Source: Candidatus Woesearchaeota archaeon (GTDB lineage Archaea > Nanobdellota > Nanobdellia > SCGC-AAA011-G17 > JAFCDX01). Taken from it: 6,733 bases of DNA. Position numbers and translations under genes: made by a program. The notes below the pieces were generated by a model that saw only the letters and a program-made list of their open reading frames with translations, searched no databases and had not been told where the DNA came from. Every line of letters starts with the position of its first letter. The stretch's first letter is position 1. Below, piece after piece: positions 660 through 5,788 of this stretch. Where the stretch lies: NCBI GenBank assembly GCA_964497015.1, contig CAZCBT010000035.1:1-6733 (forward strand). Direction: 5' to 3'.

Positions 660-962
660 ATGTTTAGATCTAAGAAATTTAAAGAAGCAGTTATAGAAGA
701 ACAAATTGCTACCATGCTAAACATCTATTTTGAAAGAATCGAAAAAGTTAGAAAAGAGATTCAAAAGATAATCCAAGAATTTAAATCTAAAAAAATTTCT
801 TATGCAGACGCTAAGAAACTTCTCCAAAATTACATGAAAGAATTGCTAAAAATAAAATCAGATCTTAAAAAACAAAAGCCCAAGAATCCAGACTTAAAAG
901 CGCAAAAAGAAAGCCTGATAGCGAAGGTAAACGAGCTTGTAAAAATAATCGAGAAGTTTTGA
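660..962 (+). CDS. Hypothetical Lys/Glu-rich helical (coiled-coil-like) protein, 100 aa
   Basis: ATG start at 660, with the T/A-rich TATA-like element TTTTTATTTT at 631-640 about 25 nt upstream. The TGA stop is followed by two T5 runs. The composition is strongly charged and heptad-like, with no recognisable motif. Confidence 0.55.
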   Translation: MFRSKKFKEAVIEEQIATMLNIYFERIEKVRKEIQKIIQEFKSKKISYADAKKLLQNYMKELLKIKSDLKKQKPKNPDLKAQKESLIAKVNELVKIIEKF

Positions 963-2070: not shown

Positions 2071-2144
2071 TGTGTTTTTATAAGTCTCTAAAATTTAAAT
2101 AATTTTCCAAAAGTTTTAAATCCTAGCATATCCTTAAATCTCAT
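2071..2144. promoter_or_regulatory. 74-nt divergent promoter region with two opposed TATA boxes
   Basis: TTTTAAAT at 2114-2121 is about 27 nt upstream of the plus-strand ATG at 2145. TTATTTAAAT (reverse complement of 2091-2102) is about 27 nt upstream of the minus-strand ATG at 2070. Both spacings imply leaderless mRNAs. Confidence 0.5.
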
Positions 2145-2786
2145 ATGGTATTTTGGTTTTTTAGAAAGAAGCCGCAATTAAAGGTTGAACATCTGCATAA
2201 AAATCTACAGCATTCTTTTTCTAACCTTAAAAAAGACATCTCTACAATAAGCAAGTGGATTGAACATTTCAAAGAAAGGCACGAAAAACATGAGGAAAAT
2301 TTTGGGTATGTCATAAGGAAGATCTCTGATCTTGAAGAGAAATACCAAAAAATACTCGAAAAGCTTGAGGAATTGGGCATTTCTGATGAAAAATCTGGCG
2401 TTCAAATGGGCGTTCAAAGCGTTCAATCGTTCATGAACGTTCAATCGCTCGAAAAAATAAGCCCTATAACCTTAAAATTTGAAGGGTCTGAGCGTTCAAA
2501 TGTGTTCATGAACGTTCAATCGTTCATGAACGTTCAATCGCTCGAAAAATTAACTCCTGCACAAAAAAATTTGGTTGCTTTACTACTTTATGCCCCACAA
2601 CCAATGTCCTATGAGGAAATTTCTAAAAAACTAGGGCTCAGTGTGATCACAGTAAGGCGTCATATTAATGACATCAAAAGGATAGGATTCAAGATAAATG
2701 AAAAAGTTAGTGTTAGGAATAGAAAAAAATTATTCTACTTTGACGAAAAAATCAAAAAGGCCATTCTAAAAGTTAGAAGAAAGTAG
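2145..2786 (+). CDS. Putative DNA-binding protein, 213 aa. It has an N-terminal charged helical region, an internal repeat linker (VQSFMNVQSLEK twice) and a C-terminal (winged) helix-turn-helix.
   Basis: The C-terminal segment LTPAQKNLVALLLYAPQPMSYEEISKKLGLSVITVRRHINDIKRIGFKI fits the usual HTH pattern (ligand-name-like helix, then S-x-x-TV-x-RHI recognition helix, then a G-hydrophobic wing). The ORF stays open through the repeat block. Confidence 0.8.
   Translation: MVFWFFRKKPQLKVEHLHKNLQHSFSNLKKDISTISKWIEHFKERHEKHEENFGYVIRKISDLEEKYQKILEKLEELGISDEKSGVQMGVQSVQSFMNVQSLEKISPITLKFEGSERSNVFMNVQSFMNVQSLEKLTPAQKNLVALLLYAPQPMSYEEISKKLGLSVITVRRHINDIKRIGFKINEKVSVRNRKKLFYFDEKIKKAILKVRRK
2398..2549 (+). 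repeat. Intragenic duplicated block made of phased GTTCA half-sites. Block A is 2398..2456 and block B is 2492..2549.
   Basis: An exact 37-nt repeat, CGTTCAATCGTTCATGAACGTTCAATCGCTCGAAAAA, occurs at 2420..2456 and 2513..2549. An exact 11-mer, GCGTTCAAATG, occurs at 2398..2408 and 2492..2502. GTTCA starts at 2400, 2412, 2421, 2429 and 2439 in block A, and at 2494, 2504, 2514, 2522 and 2532 in block B. GTTCATGAAC palindromes lie at 2429-2438, 2504-2513 and 2522-2531. Confidence 0.9.
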
Positions 2787-2804
2787 GTATAAATCTAAAA
2801 GGTG

Positions 2805-2822
2805 AGGATTATTAACAATCCT
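2805..2822 (+). other. Short hairpin (AGGATT / loop ATTAAC / AATCCT) 19 nt downstream of the HTH gene stop
   Basis: A 6-bp perfect stem read directly from the sequence. It is weak on its own in AT-rich DNA, and archaeal termination does not require hairpins. Confidence 0.2.
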
Positions 2823-3205
2823 ATGAGCAATAAATTGAAAGACACAAAGCTTGATTGGAACATAATCTAGGATTAAAAGCCATTTCGATGATAACTAAAA
2901 TTTACTTATAATCTAAAAATGTAAGAGATAAAGATCTAGACAATAATTCGCAGTAGTCTTGATTTTAAATTTGGACCAAAAGTTTGTATCTGATTTCGCA
3001 TAAAATTTTAAGGTAAGTGTATATGATTCGCAATATAATTTATCCAGTTCCAGCATGAAAGTTCGTATTGGCCAAGAGCCCTTCAAATTCATATAAATAC
3101 AAAAAATCTGATACTCATAAGCTCAAAAAGAAGAAAAAGTCAAAACCAAATAATAAATTAGAAGACCCAACCTTCTTTCATATAAATTGGTTTTTATTTA
3201 TTAAA

Positions 3206-3239
3206 ATCAAGAATCTAAAAGTAAAGGGTAATTCTTGAT
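3206..3239. repeat. Inverted repeat with a 9-bp stem (ATCAAGAAT ... ATTCTTGAT) and a 16-nt loop, inside the long non-coding region
   Basis: The arms at 3206-3214 and 3231-3239 are perfect reverse complements. The loop contains one copy of the recurring AATCTAAAA 9-mer. Confidence 0.6.
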
Positions 3240-3525
3240 CTAAATTCGTTTAAATTTTAAAAACTTAGAGAAAATCTAATTCGTATAATTCGAAATTCTG
3301 TTAAAAAACAAGGCTACACTTTTATCCCCGAGGTTTGATTATAAAAATTTAAAATTAAGGTATAGGCACTACAAAATTCATAAGAATTCTTAAGTTTTTG
3401 TTACTTCTGGTTAAAATTCTTACTACAACTATTGAGGGATGTCCAAATACAGTATACATTTTATTTTATACATATCATAAGCTAAAAATATATATAAACA
3501 ACATCACCGTAGGAAAAGCTGTAAA

Positions 3526-3642
3526 ATGCTTAAAAAGGAGTTAAACATTCTCAAAACCATGAAAGAAAAGAAATGTTCCTGGGAAGAAGCCTTTAAGAAA
3601 GAAAATGAGAAAAGAACCCTAAAAGAATTCTTTAATAATTAA
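3526..3642 (+). CDS. Candidate small protein, 38 aa (MLKKELNILKTMKEKKCSWEEAFKKENEKRTLKEFFNN)
   Basis: ATG at 3526 and TAA at 3640-3642. A TATATATA-type element at 3489-3496 lies about 33 nt upstream. It converges on ORF 3653..4087 with a 10-nt gap. It is short and Lys/Glu-rich, so it may be spurious. Confidence 0.3.
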   Translation: MLKKELNILKTMKEKKCSWEEAFKKENEKRTLKEFFNN

Positions 3643-3652
3643 TTTCTCTTAA

Positions 3653-4087
3653 TTAGCCAATATAGTCCTTCTTTCCTTGTGCTGGTTGAGAAACAACCAC
3701 GGGTAAGCGTATGTGTGGTGGTAAATTGAGATCCTGGGAAAGTATTAGTGCTTTAATATTGCATCTTGTCAAAATTGCTGTAAAAAGCCTTTCCATTAGT
3801 TTTCTATCAAGTGTCTTTTTAGATTTCCAATTGTTAAAAATTTCCTTCATTTTCTTATCATCTTCAAGATAATAAATATACCCGCCCAATTGTAAATTTG
3901 CGACACCTGGCTCGTAATCGACAGTAAAGTTAAAGTTTATTTTCAGAACATTCTGCTCTTTACCAACATTTATCCTATCTTCTTCAATATCAGAAATTTC
4001 TAAATTGCTTTTTATATTAAGCTTGTCAAAACTCTCTTTTTTCCTTTCAGCAGATATTTTTGTGATTGCAAACCCTACGATTGGCAT
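3653..4087 (-). CDS. Hypothetical protein, 144 aa, with a pattern-level resemblance to the SecB-like chaperone fold
   Basis: It has a clean ATG and its own TATA box. The order of segments (FAITKISAER..., then the beta-like VLKINFNFTVDY, then LQLGGYIYYLED, then helix LMERLFTAILTRCNIKALILSQDLNLPPHIRLP) parallels the E. coli SecB layout as I recall it. I could not run a search. Confidence 0.75.
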   Translation of the reverse strand: MPIVGFAITKISAERKKESFDKLNIKSNLEISDIEEDRINVGKEQNVLKINFNFTVDYEPGVANLQLGGYIYYLEDDKKMKEIFNNWKSKKTLDRKLMERLFTAILTRCNIKALILSQDLNLPPHIRLPVVVSQPAQGKKDYIG

Positions 4088-4126: not shown

Positions 4127-5788
4127 TTACATCCTTTCCAAAGTTTTTATGCCAAGCAATAGCAAGGCGTTTTTAATTGTGTATCTAAATGCTTCTACTA
4201 ATGCTAATCTTGCAGCCATTTCTTGCTTGTTTTCTACTATACATCTGCATACCTGATAAAATTCATTAAACTTCTTAGCAAGTTCATAAGCGTAATTAGC
4301 AACTATGCTGGGCTTTAAATGCGAGGCTGCTTCTTTGACTATGCTAGGAAAATTGTAAATCTCTTTGATTAATTCTTTTTCCGCTTCGGAGTTAAGGTAA
4401 TTAAAATCCGCTCTAGTTCTTAATTTTGGTGCCTTTTTGATAATGGAAGAAGCTCTTGCATATGAGTAAAGCAGGTAGGGAGCTGCATCACCTTCATAGC
4501 TTAAAGCTTGTTTCCAGTCAAAGATAACATTTTTCTCTGGGGAGACTTTAAGGATTGCATATTTTACAGAAGCGTAAGCAAGTGTTTTGATGGCTTTTTT
4601 GCTATAATTTCCTCTCTTTTTGAATTCTTGGTTAGCTTTTTCAATAGCCTGCTTCATGAAATCTTGCAACAATACAAGATTGCCTTCTCTTGTTGACATC
4701 TTCCCTGTTTTAAGCAAGACATGTGAATAAAAAACAGCTCTCGGAGCATGGTAGTTAAGTAAGCTTAAAGCGGAAGCGATTTGCTGGAAGTAAAGTTTGT
4801 GATCTTCGCCAAGAACAACCATGTTTTCTTTTGCTTTTTCAAGTTTTTCAATAGTATAAGCAATATCTCTTAATGAATACAAAGACGTGCCGTCTGCTCT
4901 TGTAAGTACAAGTACCGGGTCCTTCATATCAAGCCTGAAATCTCTTAAATCAAGAACATACCTGCCATGACTGTCGATAGTTAATTTGTTTGTTTTTTCA
5001 AGTTGTTTAAGAATTTCTTTTGTTTTCCTTGCCCAAAGATATTTAGATTCGTAGTCAAAATGATCATATCTTATGCTAAGTTCCGAAAGAATTTTCAGCT
5101 GGCCTTTTAAGCAGATGTCCACTATTTTCTTGAATTGCCCCTTAACTTTTTTATCGCCTTGCTCAAGCTTGTAAAGCAAGTCAAAAATTTCCTTTTCTAT
5201 TTGTGGTGTTAGATTTTTATTAATCTCTATATAATATTCAAGCATCTTTTCAAATGATAGCTGCTTCTTGTTTTTACAAGCATAAACAAGCATTGCTATC
5301 TGCTTGCCAACATCATTAACAAAATAATGAACATCTACACTGTAGTTAACAAATCTTAACAATCTTGCAAGAGAATCACCAATTAAAGCATTCCTTGCTC
5401 TGCCAACATGAGGAGGAGCATTTGGGTTAATGCTTGTATGTTCTATTAGAAGCTTTTTCTTCTTGCCAATATTAATGCTGCCGTATTTTTCTTTTTGTTT
5501 TAAAACAGAAGAAATAACATTCTTGGCAAATTCTGTAGGATTGATAAAAAAATTGATATAAGCAAAATTTGCTTCTATTTTTGATATTAATTTTGGTGCA
5601 ATTTTTTGTAGTTTTTTGGCATAGAGTTTTGCTATTTCTTCTGGTGGCTTTTTGAGTTTTGGTGCAAGTTGATAACAAGGAAATGCATAATCGCCAAGTT
5701 CCTTGTTTGGAGGTACTTCGAGTTTTATTTCAACATCTTTTGGAAGAACTTTTTTGAGCAAATTCTTAATAGAATTTTCTATGTGCAT
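4127..5788 (-). CDS. argS: Arginyl-tRNA synthetase (class I aaRS), 553 aa
   Basis: The HIGH-region motif HTSINPNAPPHVGRARN covers residues 117-133. The ArgRS-type KMSKS equivalent KMSTREG is at residues 363-369 (KMSTR codons at 4688..4702). The C-terminal anticodon-binding-domain ending ...LLLGIKTLERM is typical of ArgRS. Confidence 0.95.
   Translation of the reverse strand: MHIENSIKNLLKKVLPKDVEIKLEVPPNKELGDYAFPCYQLAPKLKKPPEEIAKLYAKKLQKIAPKLISKIEANFAYINFFINPTEFAKNVISSVLKQKEKYGSINIGKKKKLLIEHTSINPNAPPHVGRARNALIGDSLARLLRFVNYSVDVHYFVNDVGKQIAMLVYACKNKKQLSFEKMLEYYIEINKNLTPQIEKEIFDLLYKLEQGDKKVKGQFKKIVDICLKGQLKILSELSIRYDHFDYESKYLWARKTKEILKQLEKTNKLTIDSHGRYVLDLRDFRLDMKDPVLVLTRADGTSLYSLRDIAYTIEKLEKAKENMVVLGEDHKLYFQQIASALSLLNYHAPRAVFYSHVLLKTGKMSTREGNLVLLQDFMKQAIEKANQEFKKRGNYSKKAIKTLAYASVKYAILKVSPEKNVIFDWKQALSYEGDAAPYLLYSYARASSIIKKAPKLRTRADFNYLNSEAEKELIKEIYNFPSIVKEAASHLKPSIVANYAYELAKKFNEFYQVCRCIVENKQEMAARLALVEAFRYTIKNALLLLGIKTLERM

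Follow-up and report, generated by a model that had tools for sequence, protein, structure and literature searches.

A nucleotide-constrained array of GTTCA half-sites in the linker-coding DNA of a winged-helix gene of Woesearchaeota, a candidate intragenic auto-operator

The 6,733-nt contig CAZCBT010000035.1 (assembly GCA_964497015.1) of a Candidatus Woesearchaeota archaeon, hereafter the window, carries an open reading frame (ORF) of 213 codons at 2145..2786 on the + strand, and this gene for a helix-turn-helix (HTH) protein contains a dense array of the pentamer GTTCA. The region 2398-2549 reads as a cis-element at the DNA level, in which GTTCA half-sites are arrayed and some of them pair up as the 12-bp palindrome CGTTCATGAACG, and comparison with orthologues shows that the constraint on it acts on nucleotides, not on the peptide. 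On balance, we think it probable that the array is an intragenic auto-operator bound by the gene's own winged-helix product. We favor self-binding because the word is frozen in the linker-coding DNA, is palindromic, recurs upstream of the gene, is absent from the neighborhood and swaps together with the recognition helix; which protein binds, that binding represses, and that looping occurs are all points that we infer from sequence.

The array consists of two blocks. Block A (2398..2456, + strand) holds five GTTCA pentamers starting at 2400, 2412, 2421, 2429, and 2439 (spacings of 12, 9, 8, and 10 nt) and one inverted TGAAC, with the 12-bp palindrome at 2428-2439. Block B (2492..2549, + strand) holds five GTTCA pentamers starting at 2494, 2504, 2514, 2522, and 2532 (spacings of 10, 10, 8, and 10 nt). 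Two inverted TGAAC also lie in this block, as do the palindromes GTTCATGAAC (2504-2513) and CGTTCATGAACG (2521-2532). The shorter palindrome GTTCATGAAC occurs at 2429, 2504, and 2522, and the copies at 2429 and 2522 are extended to CGTTCATGAACG. An exact 37-mer is shared by positions 2420 and 2513 (offset 93), and the exact 11-mer GCGTTCAAATG by positions 2398 and 2492 (offset 94); frame arithmetic and codon listing show that the 11-mer is translated as G-V-Q-M at 2397-2408 and as E-R-S-N at 2490-2501. These pentamer counts, spacings, palindromes, and repeated strings, including the 11-mer in two frames, had been listed in a preliminary description of the same DNA, and all of them were recovered in place. 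On the + strand of the window, 10 of the 11 GTTCA copies fall within 2400-2536, with the remaining copy at 4282. Base composition predicts about 6.9 copies per strand for the whole window and about 0.16 per 152 nt, where 10 are observed, and the Poisson estimate for ten copies in 152 nt is ~1e-15, which excludes chance. Tandem Repeats Finder (TRF) resolved the array into an 8-nt unit, CGTTCAAT, and an 18-nt unit. The two-block layout is common to the window and its closest relatives (loci L005 and L006), and the window array is identical in four independent assemblies.

Orthologous genes were compared at 32 loci of DPANN archaea with ~40% protein identity, of which 29 full-length genes were analyzed. 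The loci were found with the C-terminal domain only, using a pattern from VTVRRHIND, so that the linker was not biased by the search, and five further variants were added by exact protein look-up. Across genomes of 26-40% G+C the linker DNA is near-identical, forming a degenerate (CGTTCAAT)n array with the consensus GAA CGT TCA ATC GTT CAT GAA CGC GTT CAA TCG TTC AAT CGT TCA AAT CAA TCG TTC ATG AAC GTT CAA TCG. Codon choice in this region is almost fixed and departs from that of the rest of the gene. Arg is encoded by CGT in 22/22 linker cases and by AGA/AGG in 47/48 cases at the Arg-Arg pair of the HTH domain. Phe is TTC in 36/38 linker cases and mostly TTT elsewhere (62-94% at conserved Phe columns), and Asn is AAC in 21/22, with AAT accounting for 83% at the conserved HTH Asn column and 77% gene-wide. 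Val is GTT in 23/23 and mixed elsewhere in the gene; Ser is TCA in 23/24 and TCG in 15/18, the conserved N-terminal Ser columns being mostly TCT. The linker codons CGT, TCG, TTC, and AAC are otherwise rare in the gene. When the two proteins of a pair share less than 45% identity, the residues that they have in common use the same codon in 88.6% of cases in the linker, compared with 59% for the N-terminal part and 51% for the HTH domain.

The pentamer is translated in all three frames in 28/29 full-length genes, and GTTCATGAACGTTCA, for example, is read as V-H-E-R-S in one frame and as (F)M-N-V-Q in another. The apparently conserved peptide (ERS / VHERS / SFMNVQS) is therefore one DNA word translated in three frames, and the amino acids of the linker follow largely from the DNA element, as a by-product of it. 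Lineages differ in their repeat units (GTTCAATC, GTTCAAAC, GTTCAACC, GTTCGAAC, or GTTCACACAT) and all keep the pentamer; the altered units encode VQTF (GTTCAAAC), VQPF (GTTCAACC), VRTF (GTTCGAAC), and MFTHV (GTTCACACAT). A spacer change hits all units of one genome together, and the units are homogenized within each genome, so concerted evolution or past homogenization is evident. Unit number varies among lineages, and successive GTTCA copies are most often spaced by 8 nt (52 cases) or by 10 nt (42 cases). The earlier proposal that the DNA string is conserved, not the peptide, is borne out by these orthologues, in which GTTCA is kept with frozen synonymous sites as the peptide varies among VQSF, VQTF, VQPF, VRTF, and MFTHV; the alignment is the opposite of a kept peptide over scrambled GTTCA strings. 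We assign the constraint to the nucleotides, and reject conservation at the peptide level, because synonymous sites are frozen, otherwise rare codons have become fixed, the word is read in three frames, and disorder is predicted for the linker. Such a linker tolerates almost any sequence, which leaves the DNA element free to dictate the codons.

The word is also concentrated around its own gene. The scans of flanking DNA covered 3-10 kb on either side of the gene, and in them CGTTCA has a density of 0.17/kb (347 kb in total), about that predicted from base composition, compared with 13.6/kb inside the gene, a 78-fold enrichment. Within the scanned flanks, the array word is confined to the gene and its own upstream region. 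At one locus (L025), the gene is preceded by four CGTTCA copies at exact 10-nt spacing, in non-coding DNA immediately before its TATA-like element, and clusters of GTTCA/TGAAC occupy the equivalent place at four others (L007, L008, L019, and L021). At least two pentamers were found in 5/27 upstream regions, compared with 2.3% of 4082 background windows (P=3e-4), and at least three in 3/27, compared with 0.15% of background windows (P=9e-6). A gapped pattern of 3xCGTTCA was also run over viral contigs; it gave >120 apparently chance matches and was abandoned as too loose. Three of these contigs (L103, L108, and L110) carry tandem arrays that match it four to six times and are probably unrelated repeats.

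A second lineage provides a different word at the same place. A profile search retrieved distant relatives of equal architecture, with the recognition helix KSTIRGQINNIKQK and xVQT/SKQL linker repeats, and 80 of the >592 loci of this sister lineage, found by a metagenome scan with the C-terminal domain as the only query, were analyzed. Their gene order (HTH gene, convergent paralogue, the conserved neighboring genes F4 and F2, PRC-barrel gene, Orc1) makes the HTH genes positional orthologues. The HTH domains of the two lineages align gap-free with 98.5% probability (hhalign), and their recognition helices differ at four positions, the sister lineage having STIRGQINNIKQK at the aligned recognition-helix positions. 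The sister linker is built of the 12-nt unit GCT GTY CAA ACA, which contains the perfect palindrome AAACAGCTGTTT, and its codons are skewed in the same manner: Gln is CAA in 191/191 cases versus 63% elsewhere, Thr is ACA in 91% versus 55%, and Val is GTC in 49% versus 6%. In 22/68 genes, both VQTAVQT and SKQLSKQ are encoded by this string, in two frames. Outside the gene, 121/150 occurrences of the sister word lie no more than 500 nt upstream of the gene's own ATG, with 2 downstream; 9% of the sister flank DNA is accounted for by the 320 nt upstream of the gene. These upstream copies are non-coding, precede the TATA-like element, and are perfect palindromes. Loci with AACAGCTGTT upstream have AACAGCTGTT in the linker in 16/19 cases, compared with 3/13 of those with TGTTTGGAC upstream (Fisher P=9e-4, uncorrected for relatedness). 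Between the lineages, the helix VTVRRHINDIKR is paired with GTTCA/CGTTCATGAACG and the helix STIRGQINNIKQK with GTCCAAACA/AAACAGCTGTTT (two lineages, phylogeny uncorrected). Word and recognition helix thus switch together, and site specificity co-varies with the DNA-reading residues in the two lineages, as for an operator. The same holds for location: the in-gene enrichment, the upstream clusters, and the upstream copies of the sister lineage make the site word specific to the gene and its promoter region.

The 213-aa protein begins with the hydrophobic/basic motif MVFWFFRKK; residues 12-76 form a helix, residues 83-131 a disordered linker, and residues 138-212 a C-terminal winged helix-turn-helix domain. 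Pfam HTH_11 matches residues 140-185 (3e-9, 37 bits against a cut-off of 25), in agreement with the preliminary assignment of the array to an HTH protein gene. In an AlphaFold model built from 55 homologues, the predicted local distance difference test score (pLDDT) exceeds 90 for the single long helix 12-76 and the winged helix 138-212, and is below 50 for linker residues 83-107 and 109-131, which are predicted to be disordered; the DNA coding for linker residues 83-131, at 2391..2537 (+ strand), coincides with the array. The elements of the winged helix (helices 138-149, 156-163, and 167-180, strands 185-188 and 195-198) have pLDDT >95 and form a three-helix bundle with a beta-hairpin wing. 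Foldseek identified a generic MarR/ArsR-type winged helix, with MepR, NolR, SmtB, and MarR as best matches at E ~1e-3, and returned no match more specific than that; a PDB sequence search gave marginal matches only, to a designed coiled coil and GerE. The domain, located by Pfam, AlphaFold, and Foldseek, is encoded at 2556..2780 (+ strand), with its recognition helix at residues 167-180 (VITVRRHINDIKRI), and RRH-ND is invariant across the family. At the N-terminus (window 2145-2171, residues 1-9), M-x-F-W-[FIL]-F followed by K/R-K-K is kept in homologues of both lineages; this MxFWFF-KKK motif, modeled with a pLDDT of 53, resembles short membrane-targeting sequences. A putative promoter, the B recognition element (BRE)/TATA sequence AAAAGTTTTAAAT, lies at 2109..2121 (+ strand), 24-36 nt upstream of the ATG, and was assigned by position and similarity to AAAGTTTAATAA, which is kept at the equivalent upstream place in orthologues. 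A word-index search found 120 homologues with 33-65% identity, named Nanoarchaeota or Woesearchaeota proteins by their sources, and the family grew to 706 cluster representatives at E <1e-3 in an exhaustive profile search; a ERSIVHERVQSFNRSNQSFMNVQS-like linker is present in all homologues. In the literature we found no description of the protein family or the motif, and the DNA words matched only unrelated primers and similar strings.

The preliminary description had offered three roles for the array, namely an intragenic auto-operator, an iteron-like origin of an integrated replicon, and a hotspot of slippage. The first of these fits best, the lineage-specific word being found also in the gene's own non-coding upstream DNA. 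In such an operator, the N-terminal coiled coil would dimerize the protein, and the flexible linker of ~50 residues would allow two winged-helix domains to reach palindromic or adjacent sites. The array, 70-150 bp long and about 250-400 bp from the promoter on its downstream side, may be covered by several dimers, which would exert negative feedback by blocking RNA polymerase or by looping to upstream sites where such exist. Several points weigh against autoregulation. No GTTCA cluster is found upstream of the promoter in the window or in 22/27 loci of its family, and it is chiefly the sister lineage that clearly shows the combination of promoter and linker sites. The covariation tests are uncorrected for relatedness and compare two lineages with non-independent sub-lineages. 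Spacings of 8 and 10 nt, and palindrome half-site centers 6 bp apart, are unusual for classical winged-helix dimers, and 7-15 sites exceed the needs of simple autoregulation. A genome-wide regulon, or another protein using the same word, is possible beyond the scanned flanks of 3-10 kb. The host organisms are uncultivated, and binding of the protein to the array is a prediction.

The conserved neighborhood of the array gene runs HTH gene, convergent paralogue (F1), a gene for a 144-aa protein (F2, window 3653-4087), (ArgRS), F4, LonB, and PRC barrel, followed by an extremely AT-rich intergenic region of 500-950 nt and then by orc1/cdc6 and polD-DP1. The AT-rich region upstream of orc1 is likely the replication origin; examples are found at L009:15895-16722, L015:14822-15573, and L022:7222-8071. 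In 17/21 loci with enough flank, orc1/cdc6 and polD-DP1 are 4.7-7.9 kb away from the array locus, and in the sister lineage ~3 kb away. The convergent F1 gene stands next to the HTH gene in 25/32 loci, within 100 nt in about half. It is absent from the window's clade, including L005 and L006, and its position in the window is taken by a non-coding tract of 866 nt (2787..3652, 27% G+C), which is not part of the array's conserved context. A tblastn search of 2787-3652 with F1 proteins for a remnant of the gene gave no convincing match (best E 0.05). The 3' ~100 nt of the tract (about 3530-3635) show 72-77% identity to the tracts of L005 and L006, and an ORF of 38 aa is called there in the source contig.

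The F1 paralogue itself is a protein of about 200 aa with a coiled coil, a linker, and an HTH domain. Its linker carries S-T-G-N-x-G-V, encoded by the frozen DNA AGTTCCAnnGGAAAT-nnn-GGGGT (for example L021:2975-3000 and L011:2955-2980, - strand; the loci spanned L007-L030 and L156-L235), and the Ser codon of this string, TCC, accounts for just 1% of the Ser codons of the neighboring HTH gene. The string matches the archaeal origin recognition box (ORB), defined by a TTCC...GAA dyad core often with a G-string after it (PMC1904270, PMC4010727). This ORB-like element is present in 24/25 F1 genes of the window family and in 47/53 sister-lineage loci, and L008, L009, L013, and L019 have a similar TTCCAnnGGAAATAAAGG at 70-90 nt upstream of orc1. 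The element embedded in F1 is probably an Orc1/Cdc6 site in coding DNA. A second motif, (GTAtACTTAAtT-n-)AAAAAGTGAGRGTT, occurs on the + strand in 1-5 copies at most loci of both lineages, overlapping the HTH gene's stop codon at roughly one third of loci and repeating up to the convergent paralogue. Its presence in 65/73 sister-lineage loci makes it independent of the array word. In the window, degenerate copies (AATCTAAAAGGTGAGGATTATT and others) lie at 2792-2813, about 2917-2937, and 3212-3233, and in L015 copies lie at 10279, 10362, and 10437.

This setting raises an alternative that we regard as unlikely, in which the array would be no operator but a structural, centromere- or iteron-like nucleoprotein platform near the replication origin, coated by the protein to tether or organize origin-proximal chromosome or to modulate initiation. 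The distance to orc1/cdc6 and polD-DP1 just given, the ORB-like element in the neighboring paralogue's own linker-coding DNA, and the uniqueness of the word to the locus within the scanned flanks would all suit such a platform, as would the many contiguous sites of mixed orientation, which recall plasmid centromeres and iterons. The conserved N-terminal motif could target the protein to the membrane, and a precedent exists in the iterons of the lambda origin, in the middle of gene O (PMC7466680). Against this, the word is absent from the AT-rich region upstream of orc1, the likely origin, no ParA-like or other partner gene is conserved adjacent to the array gene, the promoter-proximal copies suit regulation better, and membrane targeting is read from a 9-residue motif in a low-confidence model. 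Somewhat less probable again is a cluster of sites for a different DNA-binding protein, be it F1, the 88-aa F4 protein, or a global regulator. The neighborhood does contain a number of conserved small HTH-like genes, and self-binding by the gene product is itself a deduction. Nevertheless, the word swaps between lineages together with the gene's own recognition helix, the sites are confined to the gene and its upstream region, and the array is kept, and even doubled into two blocks, where F1 is absent, so F1 is not a required binder.

Two further explanations do without a DNA-binding protein. GUUCA repeats or palindrome hairpins in the mRNA could be the target of an RNA-binding protein or control translation or stability, a reading that we hold to be very unlikely. 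The RNA folds better than shuffled sequences (z = -4.7 for window 2385-2560 and -3.0 for the AR20 orthologue), and short motifs with 3-nt spacers resemble targets of oligomeric RNA-binding proteins. These z-scores, however, follow trivially from the palindromes and have no discriminating power, and an Rfam 15 covariance-model scan of the whole window at E up to 1 gave no match. Copies of the words are also found in DNA that lies before the TATA box and beyond the mRNA, in both orientations, and perfect 12-bp palindromes are typical of dimers that recognize double-stranded DNA. A T-loop or tRNA-like element at GTTCAAAT was considered and dropped, having neither a closing stem nor an Rfam signal; the in-gene TTGAACATTTCAA at 2259-2271 (WIEHFK) was likewise not counted as a site, its DNA not being conserved in relatives, where the Phe is mostly TTT. 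Least probable of all is an array of no function, produced by slippage or gene conversion, or by selection on the peptide with incidental codons; a variant of this idea is a contingency locus, in which changes of the 8-nt unit switch the gene off. Homogenization of the units within genomes, a unit of 8 nt, which is not a multiple of 3, and differences in unit number between lineages are in keeping with it. But within-genome homogenization cannot hold one pentamer across lineages at ~40% protein identity, and the rare codons and the reading of the word in all three frames rule out selection on the peptide. Codon identity is 89% in the linker versus 51-59% elsewhere, and the linker peptide is predicted to be disordered. 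All 29 full-length genes (29/29) are intact in frame, 14 near-identical relatives (P0003-P0016) all encode 197 aa, and the identity of the array in four independent assemblies leaves the proposed present-day slippage hotspot without support.

The auto-operator can be set beside several known systems. In lac O2 within lacZ and gal OI within galE, auxiliary intragenic operators loop to operators at the promoter. The candidate auto-operator shares with them the use of one word near the promoter and several hundred bp downstream in coding DNA (in the sister lineage and a subset of the window family). The lac and gal elements differ in that each is one site, placed in a structural gene belonging to the operon under control and outside the repressor's own gene, and in that neither dictates a conserved peptide; here 7-15 sites are found. 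In Bacillus subtilis, parS lies inside spo0J/parB, and the heptads of the omega protein and the iterons of ParR are centromere arrays. Like these, the present sites are contiguous, short, direct and inverted, origin-proximal, and within the gene of their (here predicted) binder. The array protein differs in having no ParB, ribbon-helix-helix, or ParR fold and no conserved partner ATPase gene nearby, and any spreading or segregation by it would be hypothetical.

The closest formal analog is the lambdoid origin, where gene O carries, midway along its length, the iterons for protein O; inserting more of them lengthens the protein by further residues and leaves its DNA binding unaffected (PMC7466680). 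In both cases, repeated and partly palindromic sites lie mid-coding sequence of the binder, which is putative here; in the array gene they fill the linker-coding DNA between the coiled coil and the winged helix-turn-helix domain, as at such an origin, and duplication of the block has lengthened the linker. The sites are 5-12 bp here and 19 bp in lambda. Lambda O initiates replication of a mobile replicon, and within gene O an AT-rich unwinding region comes after the iterons, whereas the array gene is chromosomal, stands in conserved synteny, and encodes no initiator domain. No conserved AT-rich unwinding region adjoins the array, the downstream 866-nt tract being found only in the window's clade. 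The earlier suggestion of an iteron origin of an integrated replicon is thus unsupported, the synteny with LonB, ArgRS, PRC, and Orc1 being conserved in both lineages. We reject an integrated virus or plasmid on account of this chromosomal synteny and of the near absence of the family from viral contigs (one weak partial family match in 2.9 million). In Pyrococcus, a cluster of ORB and mini-ORB repeats bound by Orc1/Cdc6 lies inside the dp1 coding sequence (PMC1904270). The GTTCA array resembles it in being repeated inside coding DNA near orc1/cdc6 (with protein binding predicted for the array) and differs in lacking the TTCC...GAA dyad and the G-string. TCCAnnGGAAA was found neither in the array nor anywhere in the source contig and is present in the neighboring paralogue of other loci. 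We rejected the array as an ORB because it has no such dyad and its word switches while Orc1 and the paralogue's ORB-like element stay.

A wider and rather doubtful possibility is that, in DPANN archaea of the Nanoarchaeota/Woesearchaeota type, this origin-proximal gene pair forms a chromosome-organizing or replication-control module whose cis-elements are carried in the DNA for disordered linkers, an array for the gene's own product in one gene and an Orc1/Cdc6-type ORB in the convergent paralogue. If this were true, the module would be a membrane tether or centromere analog in organisms without a recognized segregation system, and the linker peptides would be by-products. A coding region dictated by a DNA element also calls for caution in the motif-based annotation of disordered linkers. 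The predicted protein-site pairs, CGTTCATGAACG and AAACAGCTGTTT with two recognition-helix variants, offer specificity predictions for an uncharacterized, widespread DPANN family in organisms without genetics. With its ORB-like element, the landmark locus near orc1/cdc6 may help to locate and understand origins and chromosome organization in reduced archaea.

Two minor observations concern DNA upstream of the HTH gene. A gene of the phage-integrase family lies ~1.3 kb upstream of it at L153:772-1728 (- strand, GCA_030649875.1), and gene clustering found this family in 9 loci, at a median of ~1.3 kb upstream. In the window, imperfect direct and inverted copies of AAGTTTTRATTTTTGATTAAAARTTTTTAGC at 544-645 and 954-1008 flank an ORF for a 100-aa coiled-coil protein (660..962), and these copies may be shared promoter or terminator elements.

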